Assembly: GCA_947494545.1 (NCBI GenBank)
Contig: CANLVH010000004.1
Location: forward strand, 181,281-245,280
DNA from: an uncultured Mesonia sp.
Lineage (GTDB): Bacteria > Bacteroidota > Bacteroidia > Flavobacteriales > Flavobacteriaceae
Reading direction: 5' to 3'
DNA: 64,000 nt
Part shown: in pieces, positions 1 through 18,258 of the stretch
Position numbering within the stretch: position 1 is the first letter of the stretch
Layout of the letters: each line of letters opens with the position of its first letter
Made by a program: the position numbers and the translations under genes
Notes under the pieces: generated by a model
What the model was told of the DNA's origin: nothing
Databases searched by the model: none
The model's input: the letters and a program-made list of their open reading frames with translations, nothing else

Positions 1-1
1 G

Positions 2-238
2 TCTCCAGCATTAAATTATGGGGAAGCTAGAAGTGTAGAATCTTCTCGAGACTTTTTACATAAAATGAAAATTTGTTTAAAAGAATTGAGAGAATCTTAC
101 GTGAATTTAAAAATTCAAAAAGGAGCTGGGCTAACTTTAAATTCAGAACTTTTAGAAGAATTATTAAAAGAGAATAACGAACTTATTTCAATTTTTGTGA
201 GGAGTGTAAAGACGGCTTCTTTTAAATTAAAATCTTAA
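2..238 (+). CDS. Four-helix-bundle protein (23S rRNA IVS-like family), 3' part; truncated by window start
   Basis: Manual translation SPALNYGEARSVESSRDFLHKMKICLKELRESYVNL...ELISIFVRSVKTASFKLKS*; the NYGEA..S..DF.HK..I.LKE.RE pattern is typical of the family. Confidence 0.85.
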   Translation, partial: SPALNYGEARSVESSRDFLHKMKICLKELRESYVNLKIQKGAGLTLNSELLEELLKENNELISIFVRSVKTASFKLKS

Positions 239-1474: not shown

Positions 1475-1888
1475 ATGAAAAATGGCATTGTACGAAACAT
1501 TTTAGCAGTTATTTTAGGAGCTGTCTTGGGCGGTTTTATCAATATGGGAATAATAATGATAAGCGGCTATATAATTCCGCCACCTGCGGGAGCAGATTTA
1601 ACTACTCCAGAAGGATTGGAAGCGGCAAAAGATTTGTTAGAGCCCAAACATTTTATTTTTCCGTTTTTGGCACACGCTATAGGAACTTTGATAGGAGCTT
1701 TCATAACCGTAATTGTGGCCAAAAACCGTCATCTTATTTTGGCAATGCTAATTGGTTTTTTCTTTTTAATTGGGGGAATTGCAGCGGCCTTTATGATTCC
1801 ATCACCCACCTGGTTTGTGGTGTTAGATTTGGTCTTGGCTTATATTCCATTTGCTTGGTTAGCGTATAAAATTAGAAAAAAAATCTAA
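1475..1888 (+). CDS. Hypothetical membrane protein (about 4 TM segments)
   Basis: 137-aa ORF with several hydrophobic segments, co-oriented within the operon. Confidence 0.8.
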   Translation: MKNGIVRNILAVILGAVLGGFINMGIIMISGYIIPPPAGADLTTPEGLEAAKDLLEPKHFIFPFLAHAIGTLIGAFITVIVAKNRHLILAMLIGFFFLIGGIAAAFMIPSPTWFVVLDLVLAYIPFAWLAYKIRKKI

Positions 1889-4563: not shown

Positions 4564-4607
4564 AGTAAAAATAGAAACGTTTTTTTACTGATTCTAAAAA
4601 TTAAAAA

Positions 4608-7145
4608 ATGCAAAAATTACAAAGTTATATTAACGGAAAATGGGTAAGTGGTTCTGGCGAAGGCGTCCCAATGTTAGATGCCGTAACCGGCGAAACCATT
4701 GCGTTAAGCGATACAAAAGGGCTTGATTTTGATCAAGCCTTAAAATATGGTAGAAAAAAAGGAGAAGCTTTACGGAAAATGACTTTCCAAGAACGCGGGT
4801 TAATGCTAAAAAAATTAGCGTTTTACCTGATGAAAAGAAAGAAAAAATTTTATGAAGTAAGTTACCGCACCGGCGCTACCAAAGCAGACAGTTGGGTAGA
4901 TATAGAAGGTGGATTTGGTAACCTTTTTGCCAATGCTTCTTTACGAAAAGTTTTTCCAAATCAGCCTTTTGATGTAGAAGGCGATCCTATAGATTTATCA
5001 CGCGGCGGTCGTTTTATGGGGCATCATATTTTGGTACCAAAAGAAGGTGTTGCGGTACATATTAATGCGTTTAACTTCCCGGTTTGGGGAATGTTAGAAA
5101 AATGTGCAGTCAACTGGATGGCCGGGATGCCAGCTGTGGTAAAACCGGCTACCAATACTTCTTTCTTAACAGAAGCGGTAGTGCGCGAAATCATTAATTC
5201 AGGAATTTTGCCCGAAGGCTCTTTGCAGCTTATTTCGGGTTCTGCACGTTCTATTTTAGATACCGTAGAATCGCAAGATGTGGTAACATTTACCGGCTCT
5301 GCAGATACCGGAAGACTCTTAAAATCGCATAAACGCTTGTTAGAAGAATCGGTTCCTTTTAATATGGAAGCAGATTCGTTAAACTCTTCTGTTTTGGGCG
5401 AAGATGCAAAACCCGGCATGCCGGAATTCGATTTGTTTATCAAAGAAGTACGTAACGAAATGACTTCTAAATGCGGTCAAAAATGTACGGCAATTCGTCG
5501 CGTTATTGTTCCGGAGAATTTGGTCGAAGATGTGCAAATTGCATTAGGAAAATCGCTGGGGAAAGTTACCGTTGGCGATCCACGTTTAAAAGAAGTACGT
5601 ATGGGTGCTTTGGTAAGCAAAGATCAAGTGCAAGAAGTACGTGAACGCGTGCAAGAAATGTCTAAAACCGCCAATTTGGTTTATGGCGATTTAGAAAATA
5701 TAAAAACCATAGGAGCAGATGCCAAAAAAGGCGCATTTATGTCGCCAATTGTGTTGCGAGAAGACAATCCGTTTGAAAATCTTGCTGTACACACTACAGA
5801 GGCTTTTGGTCCGGTAAGTACTATTATGCCGTACAAAAATTTAGACGAAGCTATAAAACTTTCCAAAATGGGTAAAGGTTCGTTGGTAAGTTCAATTGCT
5901 ACCGGCGATGATAAAATTGCTCGAGATTATACCGTAAAAGCAGCAACGCATCATGGTCGTATTTTGGTAATAAATAAAGAAAGCGCCAAGCAAAGTACCG
6001 GTCACGGTTCGCCATTGCCGCAATTGGTTCACGGCGGTCCCGGAAGAGCCGGAGGCGGAGAAGAAATGGGTGGTAAGCGCGGTATAAAACATTATATGCA
6101 GCGTTGCGCCATTCAAGGTTCGCCAACTACTTTAACCGAAATTACCGGTATTTATCAAGCTAATGCTAAATATAAAGAAGCAGAAAAACATCCGTTTGCG
6201 TACCATTGGGAAGATATTCAACCAGGAATGTCTTTAAAAACCCATAACCGAACCCTTACCGATACGGATATTGTTAACTTCGGGAATCTTACTTGGGATC
6301 ATTTTTATGCGCATACCGATATAACTTCTCTTGACGGAAGTATTTTTGAAAAACGAACCGCGCACGGTTACTTTATTATTTCCGCGGCAGCGGGATTATT
6401 TGTGTATCCTAATAAAGGACCGGTAGCAGCCAATTATGGTTTGGAAGAAATTCGGTTTTTGCGCCCGCTTTATCACAACGATACTATTCACGTACGTTTA
6501 ACCTGTAAAGAAAAGATAGATCGCGAACAAAAAGGAAGAGAATTACCAAGCGGAATCGTAAAATGGTTTGTAGAGGTTTTTGACACCAATGTAACCGATG
6601 GTAAATTGCCAAAAGACCAAGCAGAAGAAAAAGAGTCGCTTGTAGCAATTGCGACTATTTTAACAATGGTGCAAAAGAAACAAACAAGCTTTACGGAAAT
6701 TAATGAAGACGTGATTAATTCCGCTTTAGCGAAATTAAATGAAGACAGTAAACCGGCTTGGGGAAGTATGAAGCCGCAAGATTTGGTAGAACATTTAGAA
6801 GCAAGTTACCGAATTGCCTCGGGCGAAATTCAAGATTTTGACATTGTCACACCAGAGAAATATTTAGACGATACGCGTTCTACTTTATGGAATTATGAGC
6901 CGATGCCAAAAAATTTCAATTTCCCATTATACGAAGAAGGAAAGCTTCCGGAGTTGAGACATGAAAATTTAGAGGAAGCAAAGAAAAAACTTCGCGAAGC
7001 GCGAGAACAATATATTGAATTCTTTAAAGAAAACCCGGATGCAATTACTAAAAATGCCGTGTTTGGAGAGTTGACAAAATATGAATGGGAGTTACTAGAA
7101 CGCAAACACCTTAACCATCATTTTGAGCAGTTTGGATTGCTGTAG
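4608..7145 (+). CDS. paaZ: Oxepin-CoA hydrolase / aldehyde dehydrogenase PaaZ with an extra C-terminal DinB/DUF1569-like domain
   Basis: ALDH domain (INAFNFPVWG, EADSLN, GQKCTAIRR), MaoC domain (WDHFYAH, AHGYFIIS), then about 150 extra residues. Confidence 0.93.
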   Translation: MQKLQSYINGKWVSGSGEGVPMLDAVTGETIALSDTKGLDFDQALKYGRKKGEALRKMTFQERGLMLKKLAFYLMKRKKKFYEVSYRTGATKADSWVDIEGGFGNLFANASLRKVFPNQPFDVEGDPIDLSRGGRFMGHHILVPKEGVAVHINAFNFPVWGMLEKCAVNWMAGMPAVVKPATNTSFLTEAVVREIINSGILPEGSLQLISGSARSILDTVESQDVVTFTGSADTGRLLKSHKRLLEESVPFNMEADSLNSSVLGEDAKPGMPEFDLFIKEVRNEMTSKCGQKCTAIRRVIVPENLVEDVQIALGKSLGKVTVGDPRLKEVRMGALVSKDQVQEVRERVQEMSKTANLVYGDLENIKTIGADAKKGAFMSPIVLREDNPFENLAVHTTEAFGPVSTIMPYKNLDEAIKLSKMGKGSLVSSIATGDDKIARDYTVKAATHHGRILVINKESAKQSTGHGSPLPQLVHGGPGRAGGGEEMGGKRGIKHYMQRCAIQGSPTTLTEITGIYQANAKYKEAEKHPFAYHWEDIQPGMSLKTHNRTLTDTDIVNFGNLTWDHFYAHTDITSLDGSIFEKRTAHGYFIISAAAGLFVYPNKGPVAANYGLEEIRFLRPLYHNDTIHVRLTCKEKIDREQKGRELPSGIVKWFVEVFDTNVTDGKLPKDQAEEKESLVAIATILTMVQKKQTSFTEINEDVINSALAKLNEDSKPAWGSMKPQDLVEHLEASYRIASGEIQDFDIVTPEKYLDDTRSTLWNYEPMPKNFNFPLYEEGKLPELRHENLEEAKKKLREAREQYIEFFKENPDAITKNAVFGELTKYEWELLERKHLNHHFEQFGLL

Positions 7146-7230: not shown

Positions 7231-9372
7231 TTACTTCACTAAAGTCAACTCATCAATTATATGGGTTGCTCCGGCAAATTTGTCTATTAAAAACAAAACG
7301 TATCTAATATCTACACTTATGGTACGTTGCAATTCGTCATCAAAAATTACATCGCCGGCCATTGCTTCAATATTTCCGTCAAAAGCTAATCCAATTAATT
7401 CTCCTTTTCCGTTTAAAACTGGCGAGCCAGAATTTCCACCGGTAATATCATTATCCGTTAAAAAGTTTACCGGTAAATAGCCATCTTCATCGGCATATTG
7501 ACCAAAGTCTTTTTTCTCGTATAAATCAATTAACTTTTGTGGCATATCAAACTCTTCGTCTCCCGGTTGGTATTTTGCAACCGTTCCCTTTAAAGTTGTA
7601 TAATAATTTTTCTTGGCGTCGTTACTTTCGTCTTCCGGCAAGGCAATTACTTTTCCGTAGGTTAAACGCAACGTACTGTTGGCATCCGGATAATATTTTT
7701 TGTCCGGATTTTGGTTGCGCATTCCTTGAATCATTAGCCTAAACGCTTTTTGGTACTTATCTTCCCATTCTTTTTGCTCATCAGATTTTGCTCTGTAACG
7801 CGTTAATAAATCGGTAGATAAAGCGTACATCGGGTCGTTGTTAAGCTCTTCAATATTTGGATTGTTCAAAAACGCTCTAAACGTTTCTTCAGATTTAAAG
7901 ATGCTGTTTTCTACTGCTTCATCTATATAGTTCTGCCAAGCTTCTGCATCGTTATCGCTTTCATCAGCAATTTCTTTTACTTTAGGAGCAATATCTTTCG
8001 CTTTTTCAGAATACAAATGTAGTTGTGAGGCAAGAACATCTTTTTCTAAAGGCAGGTATAAACCATCGTACAACTTCTCGATTTCATTTTCTAATTTAGG
8101 CAATATTTCTGCTTGTTTTGCCTCGTTCTGCGTAAGGTAATATTCCATAGTTTTTCCTAAACGGTACGGAATTGTAGCCATTCTTGTACGCAATAAAAGA
8201 CTCAAATAATTACGATGACGACTACTTTCGTTTGTCTTTTCGTAATATTTGTTAATGGTGGGCATCACTTCTTCATACTTGTCGGTTTCCTGCTTTTTTG
8301 CCCATCTTTTAAACTTTCTCTCTGCTTTTCGCTTTGTTTTTGCTGTTTTATGTTCTTTTAAAGCATCAATCATTCCTTGTCTATTTTTCCAATAATTAGC
8401 GATGCTGGCATAGCTGGAAGCGTAGTCTAAATTAACTTGTGGTTTTTCATCCATATATTTCTTCATAACATCCATAGATGTTTTTGAAGCTTCTACCCAA
8501 GCAGGATAAGCGTACTCTACGTTTTGCTCAATTCCTGCAGAAGGCATCCAGCGGTTGGTTCTTCCGGGGTAACCCAAAATCATTGCAAAATCGTTTTCTT
8601 CAAAACCTTTTATGCTTGTTGGTAAATGATATTTAGGTTCTAATGGCACATTATCTTCAGAATATTCAGCCGGATTCCCGTCTTTGTCTGCGTACACTCT
8701 AAACAGCGCAAAATCTCCGGTATGGCGTGGCCACTCCCAATTATCTGTATCGCCACCAAATTTTCCAATATCTTTTGGCGGAGTTCCTACCAAACGCACA
8801 TCGTTATAATCTTGGTAAACAAAATAGTAAAACTCGTTACCGCTGTAAAAAGACTTTACGGAAACGGTATATTTTCCGCCTTCGCTATTTTCTTCTTGAA
8901 TTTTTGCCATCTCTTTATTTAAAGCGGCTTCACGTTCATCTTCTGTCATTTGGTCGTTTACTTGCGCCAACATACGTTCCGAAACATCGTCCATACGCAC
9001 AAAAAAGCGTACCGAAAGATTTTCCGGTTTTAATTCTTCTTCGTGGTTTTTTGCCCAAAATCCGTTGTTCAAATAATCGTTTTCTTCGGTAGAAAGTTCA
9101 GCAATAGTACCGTAACCGCAATGGTGATTGGTAAGTACCAAACCTTGATTAGAAATAATTTCTGCAGTACAACCTCCACCAAATTGTACAATGGCGTCTT
9201 TTAAGCTTTGGTTGTTAATACTGTAAATTTCTTCGGGCGTAAGTTGTAGCCCCATTTTTTGCATATCTACGTAATTTAAACGCTCAATATGCATTAAAAA
9301 CCACATTCCTTCATTTGCGCGCACGGGCAAAATAAATGTAGCCAAGAGTAAACATAAAAATAGTTTTTTCAT
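7231..9372 (-). CDS. dpp7: S46 family dipeptidyl peptidase, DPP7-like
   Basis: EGMW N-terminus, TNHHC, TGGNSGSPV catalytic Ser; FDGN (Gly at the S1 specificity position). Confidence 0.88.
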   Translation of the reverse strand: MKKLFLCLLLATFILPVRANEGMWFLMHIERLNYVDMQKMGLQLTPEEIYSINNQSLKDAIVQFGGGCTAEIISNQGLVLTNHHCGYGTIAELSTEENDYLNNGFWAKNHEEELKPENLSVRFFVRMDDVSERMLAQVNDQMTEDEREAALNKEMAKIQEENSEGGKYTVSVKSFYSGNEFYYFVYQDYNDVRLVGTPPKDIGKFGGDTDNWEWPRHTGDFALFRVYADKDGNPAEYSEDNVPLEPKYHLPTSIKGFEENDFAMILGYPGRTNRWMPSAGIEQNVEYAYPAWVEASKTSMDVMKKYMDEKPQVNLDYASSYASIANYWKNRQGMIDALKEHKTAKTKRKAERKFKRWAKKQETDKYEEVMPTINKYYEKTNESSRHRNYLSLLLRTRMATIPYRLGKTMEYYLTQNEAKQAEILPKLENEIEKLYDGLYLPLEKDVLASQLHLYSEKAKDIAPKVKEIADESDNDAEAWQNYIDEAVENSIFKSEETFRAFLNNPNIEELNNDPMYALSTDLLTRYRAKSDEQKEWEDKYQKAFRLMIQGMRNQNPDKKYYPDANSTLRLTYGKVIALPEDESNDAKKNYYTTLKGTVAKYQPGDEEFDMPQKLIDLYEKKDFGQYADEDGYLPVNFLTDNDITGGNSGSPVLNGKGELIGLAFDGNIEAMAGDVIFDDELQRTISVDIRYVLFLIDKFAGATHIIDELTLVK

Positions 9373-9414
9373 GGAATTATGTATTGATTATAAAATGATT
9401 TTAATTTCGTATCG

Positions 9415-9422
9415 CAAAGATA
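9415..9422 (-). promoter_or_regulatory. Bacteroidota -7 promoter box (TATCTTTG) upstream of dpp7
   Basis: Exact TAnnTTTG match about 45 nt upstream of the start codon. Confidence 0.6.
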
Positions 9423-9594
9423 CTTCTTTCCGTAAGTAAGACCTTTTACACGCTCAAAAGTTTAACGCTTTACGCGGAATTTTTTACCGAAATAATTTTA
9501 AAGACAGATTGGTTTTGGTTTTTAAGTATTTTTTAGACTTCTATTTGTTGGAATACATTGCACAATGTTTATTTTTGAGGTAAAACACAATACT

Positions 9595-10350
9595 ATGAGT
9601 GAACAAGCATACGTAAAAAAGAATATAGAAAATAAAATTGCAACCGTAGAATTTTTTCATCCCGCCCATAATTCCTTACCGGGAAAGATCTTGGCAGAAT
9701 TGGCAGATACGATAACAGAAATGGGACAAAATGATGAGGTTTTGGTCATTGTTTTAAAATCTGGTGGCGACAGGACTTTTTGTGCCGGGGCTAGCTTTAC
9801 GGAATTAATCAATATTGAAAACGAGAAAGATGGCGAGAAGTTTTTTATGGGCTTTGCCAATGTGATTAATGCAATGCGCAAGTGTCCTAAATTTATTATT
9901 GGGCAAGTGCAAGGAAAAGCTGTTGGCGGCGGAGTAGGCGTTGCCTCTGCAGTAGATTATTGTATGGCGACTAAATTTTCGGCAATCAAATTAAGCGAAT
10001 TAAATCTAGGTATCGGGCCTTTTGTAGTGGGACCGGCAGTAGAGCGTAAAATAGGCGTAAGCGGAATGTCTCAAATTGCAATAGATGCCAATTCTTTTTA
10101 TTCGCCAGAATGGGCCAAACAAAAAGGCTTGTACGCCAACGTTTACGAGACAGCAGAAGAATTGGAAGAAGCAGTTGCAGAATTAGCGCAAAATTTATGT
10201 GCTTACAACCCCGAAGCCGTAAAAGAAATGAAAGAAATGTTTTGGCGCGGCACCGAAGATTGGGACGAACTGCTAAACAAACGAGCAAAAATAAGCGGAC
10301 GCTTGGTGTTATCTGATTTTACAAAAGAGAAATTGGAGAAGTATAAGTAA
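9595..10350 (+). CDS. Enoyl-CoA hydratase/isomerase (crotonase family)
   Basis: FCAGASF, GKAVGGGVG, SELNLGIGP motifs; paa context; ATG at 9595. Confidence 0.88.
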   Translation: MSEQAYVKKNIENKIATVEFFHPAHNSLPGKILAELADTITEMGQNDEVLVIVLKSGGDRTFCAGASFTELINIENEKDGEKFFMGFANVINAMRKCPKFIIGQVQGKAVGGGVGVASAVDYCMATKFSAIKLSELNLGIGPFVVGPAVERKIGVSGMSQIAIDANSFYSPEWAKQKGLYANVYETAEELEEAVAELAQNLCAYNPEAVKEMKEMFWRGTEDWDELLNKRAKISGRLVLSDFTKEKLEKYK

Positions 10351-10358
10351 TAGAGGTA

Positions 10359-10382
10359 AGTGGGTAGTTTTTAGAGGGTAGT
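10359..10382. repeat. Left arm of the inverted repeat around the four-helix-bundle gene
   Basis: AGTGGGTAGTTTTTAGAGGGTAGT matches the reverse complement of 10761-10791 at 23/24 positions plus one 7-nt bulge. Confidence 0.85.
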
Positions 10383-10386
10383 GAAT

Positions 10387-10757
10387 ATGAAAAGTAATTA
10401 TCATTTTAAATTTGAAGAATTAAAAGTATATCAAAAAGCCATTGAATATGGTGAATTGGTTCATTTTCAGATATCCACTTTTCCAAAAATTGAAGATTAT
10501 CGATTGTCGGCACAATTTGGAAGAGCTGCGGATTCGATAGCATTTAACATTGCTGAAGGTTCTGGAAGTTCGGATGCAAGTTTCTTAAATTATTTGAGAA
10601 TTGCGGAGATAGTTCACGTGAATGTGTTGCTTCAACAACCAAAGCTTTATTAAGAAATTATATAACTTTTGAAGAAAGTGAAAAAAATCGAGGCTTATTG
10701 GTTGAAATCAATAAAATGCTCGCAGCCTTAATGAAACATCTAAAAAATAAAAAATAG
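10387..10757 (+). pseudogene. Four-helix-bundle protein gene with a 1-nt deletion frameshift
   Basis: FKFEELKVYQKA...QFGRAADSIAFNIAEGS family start; after ATT GCG GA the second frame continues DSSRECVASTTKALLRNYI...LMKHLKNKK* (shift near 10606). Confidence 0.85.
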
Positions 10758-10760
10758 CGT

Positions 10761-10791
10761 ACTACCCTCTACTCACTAAAAACTACCAACT
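10761..10791. repeat. Right arm of the inverted repeat (7-nt periodic)
   Basis: ACTACCCTCTACTCACTAAAAACTACCAACT; ends 3 nt before the paaY ATG. Confidence 0.85.
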
Positions 10792-10794
10792 AAA

Positions 10795-11391
10795 ATGATC
10801 TACAAATTCAAAAATCACATTCCCGTAATTCACGAAAGCAGTTTTGTGCATCCGCTTGCTGCGGTAACTGGAAATGTTATCATTGGGAAAGACTGTTATA
10901 TTGGACCCGGAGCTGCAATTCGTGGCGACTGGGGCGAAATTGTTTTAGAAGACGGCGTGAACGTGCAAGAAAATTGTACGGTGCATATGTTTCCGGGAAA
11001 AAGCATTACCTTAAAAAAAGGAGCGCACGTTGGACACGGCGCAATTATTCACGGCGCTAATTTAGGAGAGAATTGCCTTATCGGAATGAATTCTGTAATT
11101 ATGGACGATGCCGAAATTGGCGATGAATGTATTGTTGGGGCAATGGCTTTTGTAAAAGCCGAAACCAAAATAGAAAAGCGCAGTTTGGTGGTGGGCAACC
11201 CGGCAAAAGTGATTAAAAAAGTTTCTGATGAAATGATTGCTTGGAAAACTGCCGGGACTAAATTATACCAACGGTTGCCAACAGATTGTCACGAAAGCTT
11301 AGAAGAAGTAGAACCCTTACGGGGAATTCCTAAAAACAGACCCAAACAAGAAAATTTTTACCAGACTTTACAAGAGATGAAAAAAAGTTAA
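10795..11391 (+). CDS. paaY: Hexapeptide-repeat gamma-carbonic-anhydrase-like protein (PaaY/CaiE)
   Basis: IRGDWGEI, NVQENCTVH, HVGHGAIIHG left-handed beta-helix motifs. Confidence 0.82.
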   Translation: MIYKFKNHIPVIHESSFVHPLAAVTGNVIIGKDCYIGPGAAIRGDWGEIVLEDGVNVQENCTVHMFPGKSITLKKGAHVGHGAIIHGANLGENCLIGMNSVIMDDAEIGDECIVGAMAFVKAETKIEKRSLVVGNPAKVIKKVSDEMIAWKTAGTKLYQRLPTDCHESLEEVEPLRGIPKNRPKQENFYQTLQEMKKS

Positions 11392-11448
11392 TTTAAGTCG
11401 GCTAATTTGAATTGACACAATTTTCTAAGATTTAATTTAAGTGGTTAT

Positions 11449-11481
11449 AAAAAAAGCTCGCCAATTTGGCGAGCTTTTTTT
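11449..11481. terminator. Bidirectional intrinsic terminator
   Basis: AAAAAAAGCTCGCCAATTTGGCGAGCTTTTTTT. Confidence 0.9.
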
Positions 11482-11503
11482 ATGTTCAGAATTTTAAAAA
11501 GAA

Positions 11504-13669
11504 CTATTTCTTCTTAGAAGCTTTATTCTTCTTAGGATGCACCAATTTCATTTCCTCTATCAAATGATTTGCATCAGCATATTTATCTATAATGAATAAA
11601 ATGTAACGCGCATCTACCATAATGTTTCTGGAAATTACAGGATCATAATAATAATCGCTCATTGTGCCTTCCCAAACACGGTCAAAATTTAAACCAATCA
11701 GGTTTCCGTGGGCGTCAATTACCGGGCTTCCGGAGTTTCCTCCCGTGGTGTGGTTGGTGCCAATAAAGTTTACCGGTAATTTACCGTTTTCGGCATATTG
11801 ACCGTAATCTTTCTTTTCATACAAATCGATTAATTTTTGGGGTACGTCAAACTCATAATCGTCTTCTACATATTTTTGCATCACGCCTTCTAAATGCGTC
11901 ACCGGCTCGTAATAAACCGCGTCTCTAGGGCTGTAACCTTTTACTTGTCCGTAAGTAACACGCAAAGTCCCGTTGGCATTTGGGAAAATTCTGGCCTCTT
12001 TGGGACTTAATTCTACAATGGCTTTCATATATTCTTTTTGCAAAGCGTCTATTTCCATTCTTTTACTTCGGTAGGCAGGCAATACATCGCTATAAAACTT
12101 TTCTGCTTGTTTTTTTACAAAAGCATAACCCGGATCTTCGTTTAATTTAGAAACGATTTCTTGGGCATCACCTTGCATCATTTTTTCTAAAGAAGCATAG
12201 TTGGTCAAAGCAGAGTTGTTGTAAATATTTTGGGTTAATTGCTGTTTGTTTTTTTGCTGAAGTCCTTCGGTTAAGAATTTTTCCGGCATATTTTCAGCAT
12301 AAAACTCAATTACTTTTTCAAAAACCTTTTCATCTACTTTGGCGCTATAGTCTTTGTAGCGGGATTGTAAACTGCTTAATAAATTATCTTTTCTATCGTT
12401 AAAAGATTGTTTGCCACGGTTATTTAAAACTTGTTCTAATTGGTACAGTTGAAAACCGTTTCGCAATAATTCTACATTGCGTAAAAAAGCTTCGGAAAAC
12501 AGATTGTACGCTAAGTCATAATCTTTAAATTCGGCGTAAGCCTCATCAAAGTCATTTAAAATATGACCGTATTCTTTTTGCAAGCCTTTTGCTTTTACCT
12601 GCTGCATAAATTGCTTTTCCTGCTCTTTTTTAATGCCAACAACATTGGTGTTGGTAAGACCTTGACTTTCGCCAATCCATTTTTTGTGGTAATTGGCAAT
12701 GCTGGCATATTTAGAAGCATATTTTATTTTTATTTCTTGATCTTTACGCATAAAAACGTCTTGCTCTTTTAAAGCAACTTCGCGCAAACCAATTCTTGCC
12801 GGATTGATGGTTTCTACCAATTGCTCTATGGCAACGGCTGGTAAATACTCATCTGTAGTTCCCGGAAAACCAAAAACCAAGGTAAAATCATCTTCGGCAA
12901 CGCCGTCTAAACTTACCGGTAAATAATGTTTTGGCGTGTAAGGCACATTGTCTTCGCTATACTCTGCCGGACGGTTGTTTTTGTCTGCATAAATTCTAAA
13001 CAACGAAAAATCGCCGGTATGTCTTGGCCACATCCAGTTGTCTGTATCCGAGCCATATTTCCCTATAGACGAAGGTGGCGCGCCAACCAATCTAATGTCT
13101 TTAAAAGTTTCTACGCGAAATAACATAAATTGGTTGCCATCATAAAACGTGCTAACGCGGTTGGTTTGCCAGTCTTCTTTTGGTGCGTTGTTAACTACTT
13201 TTTGTTTGTTTTGTGCAATTATTTGTTGGCGTTCTTCTTCAGAAGAGGCATTTTCTGTTCCTTCTAAAACTTTCTTGGTAACATCAGAAATTTCTACGAT
13301 AAAAGTTACCGTCATTCCCGGATTGGCCAATTCTTCGTCAAGGTTTTTGGCCCAGAAGCCGTCAGTCAAATAATCGTTTTCTACGGTAGAGTGTGATTGT
13401 ATCTGGCTGTAACCGCAGTGGTGATTGGTTAATAATAAGCCTTTCGGCGAAATTACCTCAGAGGTGCAACCGCCGTTAAAATGCGGCACGGCATCTTTTA
13501 AACTACTTTGGTTAACGCTGTAAATATCTGCAGCGCTCATTTTCATGCCCAAATTTTGCATTTCGGTTTCGTTCATTCCTTCTAAAAGAGAAGGAATCCA
13601 CATTCCGCCTTGTTGCGCAAACATTGGGAAGGCAAGAAGGAGAATAAATAATCTAATAAGTTTCATCAT
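11504..13669 (-). CDS. dpp11: S46 family dipeptidyl peptidase, DPP11-like (Asp/Glu-specific)
   Basis: GGMWIP, TNHHC, TTGGNSGSPV; FDRV (Arg at the S1 specificity position). Confidence 0.85.
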   Translation of the reverse strand: MMKLIRLFILLLAFPMFAQQGGMWIPSLLEGMNETEMQNLGMKMSAADIYSVNQSSLKDAVPHFNGGCTSEVISPKGLLLTNHHCGYSQIQSHSTVENDYLTDGFWAKNLDEELANPGMTVTFIVEISDVTKKVLEGTENASSEEERQQIIAQNKQKVVNNAPKEDWQTNRVSTFYDGNQFMLFRVETFKDIRLVGAPPSSIGKYGSDTDNWMWPRHTGDFSLFRIYADKNNRPAEYSEDNVPYTPKHYLPVSLDGVAEDDFTLVFGFPGTTDEYLPAVAIEQLVETINPARIGLREVALKEQDVFMRKDQEIKIKYASKYASIANYHKKWIGESQGLTNTNVVGIKKEQEKQFMQQVKAKGLQKEYGHILNDFDEAYAEFKDYDLAYNLFSEAFLRNVELLRNGFQLYQLEQVLNNRGKQSFNDRKDNLLSSLQSRYKDYSAKVDEKVFEKVIEFYAENMPEKFLTEGLQQKNKQQLTQNIYNNSALTNYASLEKMMQGDAQEIVSKLNEDPGYAFVKKQAEKFYSDVLPAYRSKRMEIDALQKEYMKAIVELSPKEARIFPNANGTLRVTYGQVKGYSPRDAVYYEPVTHLEGVMQKYVEDDYEFDVPQKLIDLYEKKDYGQYAENGKLPVNFIGTNHTTGGNSGSPVIDAHGNLIGLNFDRVWEGTMSDYYYDPVISRNIMVDARYILFIIDKYADANHLIEEMKLVHPKKNKASKKK

Positions 13670-16427: not shown

Positions 16428-17759
16428 ATGAGTGAAGATAAGAGATTCCCACGTTCGTGGGAATTTAAACTTCCCAAAATGGGAGAAAGTATTTCTGAAG
16501 GAACCATTATTAACTGGCTGGTAAACGAAGGAGATACCATAGAAAAAGACCAAATTATTGTAGAAGTTGCTACAGACAAAGTAGACTCTGAAGTGCCCGC
16601 CCCGGCAAATGGGAAAATCACGAAAATCTTTGCACAAGCAGATGAAGTAGTGCAAGTAGGGCAGGTAATTGCAAATATCGAAGCTTCCAGTGATCAATCG
16701 GTTAAAACAGATCACGCTTCCGCGGAAGCGAAAAAAGCAACACCTAAACCTTCTAAACCTAAAACACCAAAGAAGAAACCAGTCTCAACTTCGAACTCAC
16801 CTTCAACTTCAAAAACTTATACGCTTAATAAAAATCAGAACACTTACATTTCGCCACTTATTCAGAATATTGCGATAGATTATCACATTAGTTATGAAGA
16901 GTTGGCGCGCATTCCGGCAACGGGACACGACGGGCGTTTGCGCAAAAGCGATGTTTTTAAGTATATTGAAGAAGGCAGACCGGCGCAATTTGCACAACCC
17001 GCACCGGAAGCATCTGGTTTTCAAGTTCCCGATTTAAAATTGGACAAAGGAAAAGGCGAAATCATAGAAATGGACCGTATGCGGCAGATGATTGCCGATC
17101 ATATGGTTTATTCCAAACACACCTCGCCACACGTAACCGCGTATGTAGAAGCAGATTTAACCGAGATGGTAAATTGGCGAAATGCCAATAAAAAAGCTTT
17201 TCAAGATAAATATGGCGAAAAACTTACTTTTACGCCGCTTTTTGTAGAGGCAGTAGCCAAAGCGGTAAAAGATTTTCCCATGATTAATGTAAGCGTTGAC
17301 GGCAAAAATATCATTAAGAAAGAACATATAAATATCGGGATGGCCACGGCATTACCAAGCGGGAATTTAATTGTGCCCGTAGTAAAAAACGCTGACAAAA
17401 AAGATTTAAAAAGCATTGCTGCAGAGGTAAATGTCTTGGCGGAAAAAGCCAGAAATAACAAATTAAAACACGAAGAAACCAGCGGAAGCACGTTTACGAT
17501 TTCTAACGTAGGAACTTTTGGTAGCTTGATGGGAACCCCAATTATCAATCAGCCGGAAGTGGCGATATTAGCAACCGGAATCATCAAAAAACGCGCTGAA
17601 GTGATGGAATATGAAGATGGCGATAAAATTGAAATTAGAAGCATGATGTATCTCTCACTTTCCTTTGATCATCGCGTGGTAGATGGTTTTCTTGGCGGAA
17701 GTTTTTTAAGAAGAGTAGCAGATTATTTTGAAGATTTTAATCAAGAACGGGCTATTTGA
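16428..17759 (+). CDS. 2-oxoacid dehydrogenase E2 (dihydrolipoamide acyltransferase, branched-chain type)
   Basis: Lipoyl motif EVATDKVDSEVP, E3-binding domain, catalytic FDHRVVDG. Confidence 0.92.
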   Translation: MSEDKRFPRSWEFKLPKMGESISEGTIINWLVNEGDTIEKDQIIVEVATDKVDSEVPAPANGKITKIFAQADEVVQVGQVIANIEASSDQSVKTDHASAEAKKATPKPSKPKTPKKKPVSTSNSPSTSKTYTLNKNQNTYISPLIQNIAIDYHISYEELARIPATGHDGRLRKSDVFKYIEEGRPAQFAQPAPEASGFQVPDLKLDKGKGEIIEMDRMRQMIADHMVYSKHTSPHVTAYVEADLTEMVNWRNANKKAFQDKYGEKLTFTPLFVEAVAKAVKDFPMINVSVDGKNIIKKEHINIGMATALPSGNLIVPVVKNADKKDLKSIAAEVNVLAEKARNNKLKHEETSGSTFTISNVGTFGSLMGTPIINQPEVAILATGIIKKRAEVMEYEDGDKIEIRSMMYLSLSFDHRVVDGFLGGSFLRRVADYFEDFNQERAI

Positions 17760-17844
17760 GAAAAGACTTTTTGAAATATGACGATTTGAGACAGGACGAT
17801 TTGAATCAGGAGGTTTTGATACAAGACTTTTGGAGACAGGATTA
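17755..17844 (+). repeat. Six degenerate 15-nt tandem repeats (TTTGAGACAGGACGA-like)
   Basis: Units start at 17755, 17770, 17785, 17800, 17815, 17830; five begin TTTGA and one TTGGA. Confidence 0.9.
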
Positions 17845-17856
17845 AAGTAAAATTTG

Positions 17857-18222
17857 ATGAGACGACATAATTTTAAAAAACTACAAATTTGGAAAGAAGC
17901 GATGGATTTGATAGATGAAAATTATCTTTTCACTTCTACATTACCAGATTATGAAAGATATGGACTGAGAACTCAAATGAATCGTTGTTCTGTATCTATT
18001 GCTTCTAATATCTCGGAAGGTTCCAGTAAACGAACTGATAAACATTTTGTAAAATATTTAGAAGATAGCTTAGGTTCTGCCTATGAATGGGAAACGCAAT
18101 TAGTAGTTTGTTTCCGTCAAGATTTTCTTTCCGAAGATGTTTATTTAAGTTTAGAAAGTAAAGTGCAAAAAGTACAAAGTAAAATCTCGAATTTTATCGA
18201 CAGACTTGATTCCAATAACTAA
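17857..18222 (+). CDS. Four-helix-bundle protein (23S rRNA IVS-like family)
   Basis: HNFKKLQIWKEAMDL...ERYGLRTQMNRCSVSIASNISEGS.....F...L..SLGSAYE.ETQL. Confidence 0.92.
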   Translation: MRRHNFKKLQIWKEAMDLIDENYLFTSTLPDYERYGLRTQMNRCSVSIASNISEGSSKRTDKHFVKYLEDSLGSAYEWETQLVVCFRQDFLSEDVYLSLESKVQKVQSKISNFIDRLDSNN

Positions 18223-18224
18223 AT

Positions 18225-18258
18225 AGTCGTGGTTCAAAACGTCCTGATTCTTGATTCT
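18225..18258. repeat. Right arm of the inverted repeat, plus TTGATTC heptamer
   Basis: 18225-18250 is the reverse complement of 17803-17828 at 22/26 positions. Confidence 0.85.

Follow-up and report, generated by a model that had tools for sequence, protein, structure and literature searches.

A four-helix-bundle gene enclosed by inverted heptamer arrays in a flavobacterial phenylacetate operon: a candidate insertion cassette of the intervening-sequence type

In the phenylacetate degradation operon of an uncultured Mesonia sp., the enoyl-CoA hydratase gene and the paaY-like gene are separated by 444 nt that hold a small four-helix-bundle (4HB) gene between two complementary arrays of heptamers. 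The question raised by this locus is whether these nucleotides belong to the host operon, for instance as a regulatory hairpin of paaY, or are an insert, and in the latter case what kind of insert could persist between two protein genes of an operon. Positions refer to the window, the whole 64,000-nt stretch of contig that was analysed; the features of the locus are as follows.

9565-10350, + strand: enoyl-CoA hydratase/isomerase gene (crotonase family) of the paa cluster; stop codon TAA at 10348-10350; PF00378, 118 bits.
10351-10794: the whole insert, 444 nt, filling the gap from the hydratase stop to the paaY start.
10351-10386, + strand: left spacer; about five phased heptamers (TAGAGGT, AAGTGGG, TAGTTTT, TAGAGGG, TAGTGAA), read from the sequence.
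10359-10382, + strand: left arm of the enclosing inverted repeat, AGTGGGTAGTTTTTAGAGGGTAGT, from sequence reading, repeat search and fold.
10387-10757, + strand: 4HB gene (PF05635/TIGR02436), about 123 aa when repaired; split between frame 1 (10387-10653) and frame 3 (10602-10757).
10604-10605, + strand: frameshift site, with one base fewer than relatives, which read GC-A-AGA (I-A-R-D).
10758-10794, + strand: right spacer; complementary NNNNCTA array ending in CTAAA immediately 5' of the paaY ATG.
10761-10791, + strand: right arm of the inverted repeat, including a bulged extra unit, CTACTCA, at 10769-10775.
10795-11391, + strand: gene for a PaaY-like hexapeptide-repeat protein; best match TIGR02287 (PaaY), 229.9 bits, below the equivalog cut-off of 319.6; Hexapep, 72.9 bits.

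Anatomy of the insert and state of its gene

The arms described in the first-pass annotation are exact in the sequence. The left arm begins 8 nt past the hydratase stop and the right arm ends 3 nt before the paaY ATG at 10795; the reverse complement of the right arm reads AGTTGGTAGTTTTTAG, the heptamer TGAGTAG, then AGGGTAGT, so that 23 of 24 positions pair; the exception is a G/A mismatch between 10362 and 10788, and the bulge measures exactly one heptamer unit (7 nt). Both halves of the inverted repeat (I1 and I3) were recovered by the repeat search; the arrays, of about five units per side, are phased as TAGNNNN (left) and NNNNCTA (right), and each of the three reading frames meets a stop codon in the left array. 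The flank-complementarity score of the cassette is 32, above the 99th percentile (29) of 1500 gene-flank pairs from the same genome (mean 17.1, maximum 41). In the minimum-free-energy RNA fold of 10340-10810 the arm stem closes around the entire ORF and is extended by TAGA (10351-54) pairing with TCTA (10799-802), which sets the paaY start inside the helix region; the predicted looping-out of the ORF and occlusion of the paaY start agree with what had been proposed from the letters alone. The fold has a z of -2.48, and 2 of 100 shuffles fold equally well. An Rfam scan of 9000-12000 gave no match to rRNA or any other family, scans for sigma-70 promoters and intrinsic terminators found none inside the cassette, and the cassette contains no recombinase, nuclease or target-site duplication.

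The enclosed ORF matches PF05635 over its N-terminal part (57.4 bits; cut-off 33.8), and the repaired protein matches TIGR02436 at 73.3 bits (cut-off 24) across profile positions 1-109 of 109; both families carry the name "23S rRNA intervening-sequence protein", and structures are solved for the relatives PDB 2gsc (XCC0516) and 2rld. Residues R46, S50, N54 and E57 are conserved here and invariant in the alignment of the PF05635 paralogs of this genome; this RxxxSxxxNxxE motif has been published as GxxRxxxSxxxNxxE (PMC3936711). The reading frame is not intact, being interrupted by the 1-nt frameshift at 10604/10605. Two metagenome contigs that are 94-98% alike (X1:6387 and X2:324050) have an extra A behind 10604, which restores I-A-R-D-S-S-R-E-C; Mesonia ostreae, the nearest named relative, also has the extra base, but its 4HB gene carries a separate in-frame TAG elsewhere. 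As aligned, the two copies are broken independently, and the 4HB gene therefore appears to be decaying in this lineage; the frameshift in the present copy may mark a pseudogene or an assembly error.

These observations raise the reading that the element is an inert relic in this genome, with a dead gene, arms that have not yet decayed for lack of time and a stem without present function. The absence of the frameshift from the contigs that are 94-98% alike, the independent TAG in M. ostreae and the decayed forms at the same junction in two other loci (L031 and L032, see below) all speak for it. Set against this, the right arm shows no mismatch to M. ostreae over about 40 nt, the bulged unit included, while the flanking genes are only 82-86% identical (hydratase 82.5%, paaY 86.5%; the 4HB gene 92.7%), the frameshift may be an assembly error, and the reading covers this copy alone and leaves the class unexplained; it is considered improbable. 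Since the extra bulged unit is also present in M. ostreae, it was inherited and is not a recent slip.

States of the junction and inheritance of the cassette

The junction was surveyed in 30 genera of Flavobacteriaceae sampled via PaaY orthologs, and a hydratase ortholog lies upstream of paaY in all 30. In seven genera the junction is empty, with a gap of -1 to 6 nt (TAAATG, for example); five carry a 4HB cassette, one of them internally deleted and one with an in-frame stop. At locus L031 the cassette is 245 nt long and retains its two arms but just the termini of the 4HB ORF; in L032 the ORF is interrupted by an in-frame stop and the arms are eroded. Six genera, and the tail of a seventh gap, hold a gene-less heptamer hairpin of 72-96 nt, three hold a GIY-YIG ORF between REP-like palindromes, and the remaining sampled genera have other short elements. 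L031 is a possible intermediate between the full cassette and the gene-less hairpin. The gene-less hairpins (L012, L013, L021, L022, L026, L028 and the L036 tail) belong to the unit families AAAATGT/TTTTACA, CGAATAA and GATTGAT. The GIY-YIG ORFs (L014, gap 388 nt; L034, 394 nt; L020, 558 nt) are about 105 aa long (PF01541, 59 bits) and bracketed by TTCCTGCGTAGGCAGGAAT-type palindromes; L029 and L030 have the palindrome without the ORF, and the L020 insert is accompanied by a duplicate of the first ~156 nt of paaY. Mapped on a tree of the hydratase and PaaY, the junction states require 17 changes; the 4HB state accounts for five, of which at least three are forced by well-supported branches.

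Empty sites were also found closer to the present locus, as the first-pass annotation had proposed to look for. In a seawater metagenome contig (80-92% alike) position 10350 is joined straight to 10795, with exactly 444 nt absent, and the cassette is likewise missing from a contig that matches the Aequorivita nionensis ortholog at 97% identity in its hydratase segment and continues as hyd..GA-ATAAAA-ATG; among the metagenome contigs at 92% likeness or more to this genome no empty joint was seen. Because relatives have the hydratase and paaY genes abutting, the segment 10351-10794 is, on this comparison, an insert and not a host regulatory hairpin. The four-helix element noted between the hydratase and paaY is thus real; what that description had missed is that it is an insertion cassette of a recurrent class. 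One further contig (L064:1398-1922; runs X12-X15; 21 kb) is 99% identical to the A. nionensis hydratase and then has 365 nt of unlike sequence followed by a paaY that is only 89% identical, a sharp recombination breakpoint at the cassette site; comparison of the 365-nt insert with a clade-A locus gave no match. The library behind this contig is labelled RNA-Seq, and the contig size suggests that it contains DNA.

The same survey bears on the suggestion that the hairpin has been adapted by the host into a translational or stability switch for paaY. The predicted helix does bury the paaY start codon, and the right array ends at or a few bases from the ATG in most orthologs; a dedicated switch would nonetheless have to be reconciled with a junction that is empty in seven of the 30 genera and occupied by unrelated inserts in many others, with arms whose unit number and order vary, and with a sequence that displays no ligand-type conserved core and no Rfam family. 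As the junction can be empty or otherwise filled, paaY does not need the element, and a role as a dedicated switch is very unlikely.

Using the single repaired 4HB protein as query, 59 loci were found. The closest protein relatives lie predominantly at the same hydratase-paaY junction (33 of 42), and more than 30 Flavobacteriaceae genomes have a 4HB cassette of the same lineage there, in Mesonia, Aequorivita, Xanthomarina, Gelidibacter, Marinirhabdus, Bizionia, Hanstruepera and Psychroflexus, among others. Six further close relatives lie behind the paaH ortholog of the same paa cluster; this branch (L062, L065, L077, L078, L080, L081) is a third branch of the 4HB lineage at 54-69% identity, and the paaH-ortholog junction of the present genome holds an ordinary small membrane-protein gene (window 1476-1879). 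The dN/dS of the 4HB gene is 0.079 in clade A and 0.043 in clade B, beside 0.03-0.05 for paaY and the hydratase, values that rest on saturated synonymous sites (dS 1.6-2.3); by this measure the 4HB protein is shown to be under strong purifying selection in most relatives.

The two clades, A and B, are recovered in the 4HB protein tree with a support of 99 and differ in their arms. In clade A, 20 of 21 cassettes have GGTAG on the left and 19 have CTACC on the right, with no case of the inverse orientation; clade B has GGTGAG on the left and CTCACC on the right, GGTGAG being present in 10 of 10, and one long-branch member has AGCTCAT units. The clades are intermixed on the host tree, and Aequorivita carries both; AU tests, run on groups chosen after the trees were seen, reject monophyly of the clade-B hosts (p = 7e-7) and, on the 4HB data, monophyly of Aequorivita (p = 1.6e-5). 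Taken over all pairs, cassettes exceed their flanks in identity by a median of just 1.6 to 2.2 points, and descent is therefore mostly vertical. Among individual pairs, the 4HB genes of A. sinensis and A. xiaoshiensis are only 61% identical between flanks of 95.5% and 92.5%, and A. nionensis and A. aquimaris show zero differences from -60 to +514 (the cassette being 1 to 503) between flanks of 96.2% and 89.3%. Between A. aquimaris and an uncultured Aequorivita the cassette is 98-100% identical and the flanks 84.5% and 89.3%, the tract running from -17 to +526; the Aequorivita identity tracts stop within 11-60 nt of the arms. By these alignments and trees the gene and its arms are shown to travel as one unit, which at this junction is mostly inherited vertically and is also lost, replaced by the other lineage and occasionally copied between species within the limits of the cassette. 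The left spacer of the M. ostreae locus (L040) has outer units of the GGTGAG type (clade B) that are unpartnered on the right, followed by inner units of the GGGTAG type; composite arms are also present in L068 and L051/L052, and these patterns resemble the traces of cassettes that occupied a single site one after another.

Predicted stem, heptamer units and proposed excision

The explanation that is favoured, with modest confidence, is that of an insertion cassette of the IVS-protein type, seated between the hydratase stop and the paaY start. The cassette would be transcribed within the paa operon message; in this mRNA the G-rich left array would pair with the C-rich right array, looping out the gene and forming a long duplex. 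RNase III, which is encoded in this genome (rnc), would most likely cleave the duplex, in the manner known from the intervening sequences of 23S rRNA, and such a cut would release the cassette RNA from the operon transcript and expose the paaY start, which would otherwise be occluded; the stops of the left array in three frames would end upstream translation. Stem, cleavage and stops together would make the insert tolerable inside an operon. Both the mRNA stem and its cleavage are inferred by analogy with the rRNA intervening sequences. The Aequorivita ortholog of the cassette occurs in metatranscriptome contigs, one of which runs from the end of the hydratase gene through the left arm and across the ORF; these RNA-labelled runs consist of contigs, some of them DNA-like in size (at least 21 kb, the longest 137 kb), and give no transcript ends.

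In all 32 distinct orthologous cassettes the predicted fold joins the left spacer to the right one, with a median of 25 predicted pairs as against 15 when the right arm is replaced by a composition-matched shuffled one; since the shuffled arm still gives 15 pairs, part of the effect is due to G-rich versus C-rich composition. Mismatches within the arms display no excess of sense-strand G:U (28 of the sense and 30 of the antisense type) and are mostly transversion-type differences between unit variants (99). Arm complementarity averages 29.8 within a cassette and 21.7 with foreign arms, and in no more than 4 of 32 cases does a left arm find its best match in the right arm of the same genome, complementarity coming largely from the common unit family. 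Across genera the unit sequence is conserved despite saturated synonymous sites, and more so than the pairing register, which argues against a pure pairing constraint, as such a constraint does not predict it. Owing to the mismatch types, the own-partner result and the conservation of the unit, a sequence-specific reader of the heptamer units remains a serious rival or complement to the stem, with the 4HB protein as the obvious candidate.

In its full form this rival holds that the arms are primarily arrays of binding sites, in DNA or RNA, for the cassette's own 4HB protein, serving maintenance, copying or autoregulation by analogy with Avd, and that the stem is a by-product of inverted sites. 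The strict orientation of the clade-specific units (20 of 21 and 19 of 21 in clade A, 10 of 10 in clade B), their conservation at saturated synonymous sites and the strong purifying selection on the protein would fit such a role, as would a unit number and order that are scrambled between genera, mismatches of the transversion rather than the wobble type, and arms that are seldom their own best-matching pair. The link between unit and clade is equally explained by joint inheritance of gene and arms, however; the present copy and that of M. ostreae keep matched arms beside broken genes, and the genome holds some 165 heptamer arrays and only eight 4HB genes. Binding-site arrays as the primary function are on balance regarded as rather unlikely.

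The wider genome places both the gene and the heptamers in context. It has nine matches to PF05635, corresponding to eight genes, of which three lie in or at the edge of the 64-kb window; the eight copies have differing arms and 23-32% protein identity. Five of the eight have a flank complementarity above the 99th percentile, each with a different repeat unit; the proposition that every 4HB copy is armed was rejected, as the other three score at control level. Further 4HB cassettes lie at window 1-238 (C4:181156-181518) and 17755-18258, with flank-complementarity scores of 43 and 33, and the paa/E2-E1 region thus carries three. At C1:406699-407348 a 4HB gene is split by a GIY-YIG ORF (87 aa; PF01541, 65.7 bits) with a short inverted repeat of its own, CCTGTGAAAT...ATTTCACAGG, a selfish element within a selfish cassette. 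Seven is the commonest period of tandem repeats in the genome, with 169 arrays of at least 3.5 copies as against 55-74 for periods 5, 6 and 8; TAG-phased arrays of four units number 37 where 0.76 are expected. Many heptamer arrays start directly behind stop codons, and some use the GGGTAGT unit of the cassette; examples are C35:4137-4199 with 4606-4670, C8:133700-133845, C14:82284-82380 and C19:37584-37809. Nearly all are solo, having neither an inverted partner nor a 4HB gene; that heptamer arrays are mostly hairpins was rejected, since 6 of 165 have an inverted partner above control level.

A bolder reading is that a 4HB gene and its inverted heptamer arrays make up an active, self-contained mobile unit, able to copy itself from genome to genome into one and the same operon junction and to displace a resident cassette of another lineage; the 4HB protein and the clade-specific arms would then be the sole element-encoded machinery, homing would proceed by means other than a recognisable nuclease or recombinase, and the rRNA intervening sequences would be the same elements in rRNA. 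This is put forward tentatively, as a possibility rather than an expectation.

To our knowledge, no function has been assigned since 1993 to the proteins that rRNA intervening sequences encode, and we know of no explanation for the excess of 7-base tandem repeats in bacterial genomes. The junction provides an unusually well-sampled series from one site (empty, two cassette lineages, internally deleted, hairpin only, GIY-YIG), which shows gene and arms as a heritable, transferable unit kept under selection. With marine flavobacteria that can be cultured, Aequorivita and Mesonia among them, both the role of the IVS protein and the mobility of intervening sequences become testable; for annotation, the cassette accounts for odd operon gaps of 0.4-0.5 kb with small "four helix bundle" genes.

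Comparison with known systems

Judged on its sequence, the element matches an ORF-bearing rRNA intervening sequence (IVS) in its defining anatomy, location excepted: a terminal inverted-repeat stem is present, and the flanks are protein genes rather than 23S rRNA. The nearest published counterpart, the 23S rRNA IVS of Coxiella burnetii, carries a gene of the PF05635 family, a 28-bp terminal stem with a bulge and tandem heptamers (GACAGAT) of variable unit number (PMC4990558), and is cut mid-stem by RNase III (PMC4990558, Warrier et al. 2016). Compared with the ORF-bearing 23S rRNA IVSs of C. burnetii (S23p) and Leptospira (PMC4990558; Ralph & McClelland 1993), the cassette has a gene of the same family and a similar length (~430-450 nt); both stems are of ~24-28 bp with one mismatch and one bulge, and both have tandem heptamers beside the ORF, a strain-variable unit number and an ORF that is often decaying. 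The cassette differs in lying in the gap between two protein genes of an operon and not in a 23S rRNA helix, in encoding a protein that is under strong purifying selection in most relatives, and in that excision by RNase III, shown for the IVS, is here only probable by analogy.

Avd, the accessory protein of diversity-generating retroelements (DGRs) such as that of Bordetella phage BPP-1 (bAvd), is a nucleic-acid-binding pentamer. It shares the four-helix-bundle superfamily fold with the cassette protein; here, however, no reverse transcriptase adjoins the gene, whose immediate neighbours are the hydratase and paaY. A DGR Avd locus was rejected as a candidate, as neither a reverse transcriptase nor template/variable repeats occur among the immediate neighbours. 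PF05635 is discussed in PMC10053308, and PF05635 genes in cas loci have been described (PMC3936711).

Intergenic inverted heptamer repeats are known from Xanthomonas (GGGAATC) and Nostoc (GGGGAYT; PMC4692102), and heptanucleotide elements from Geobacter (PMC2700814). These arrays likewise consist of tandem 7-nt units, often as convergent inverted pairs between genes; PMC4692102 and PMC2700814 link them to no 4HB gene, whereas here the pair encloses one and the unit is clade-specific. A transposon or MITE was rejected as the identity of the element, as a comparison of filled and empty sites reveals no direct repeat at its ends, the sole ORF is the 4HB gene and the genomic copies are divergent.

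With homing-type genes and small cassettes, such as the GIY-YIG inserts at the junction, the element shares a precise intergenic site, presence/absence polymorphism at that conserved site and element-limited identity tracts, but it encodes no recognisable nuclease or recombinase, its ORF matching only PF05635 in Pfam. No description of an operon cassette that combines a 4HB gene with inverted heptamer arrays was found in the literature searched, in which the components are described separately; this locus adds a multi-genus series at one junction, cassette-limited identity tracts, lineage replacement and a negative wobble test.
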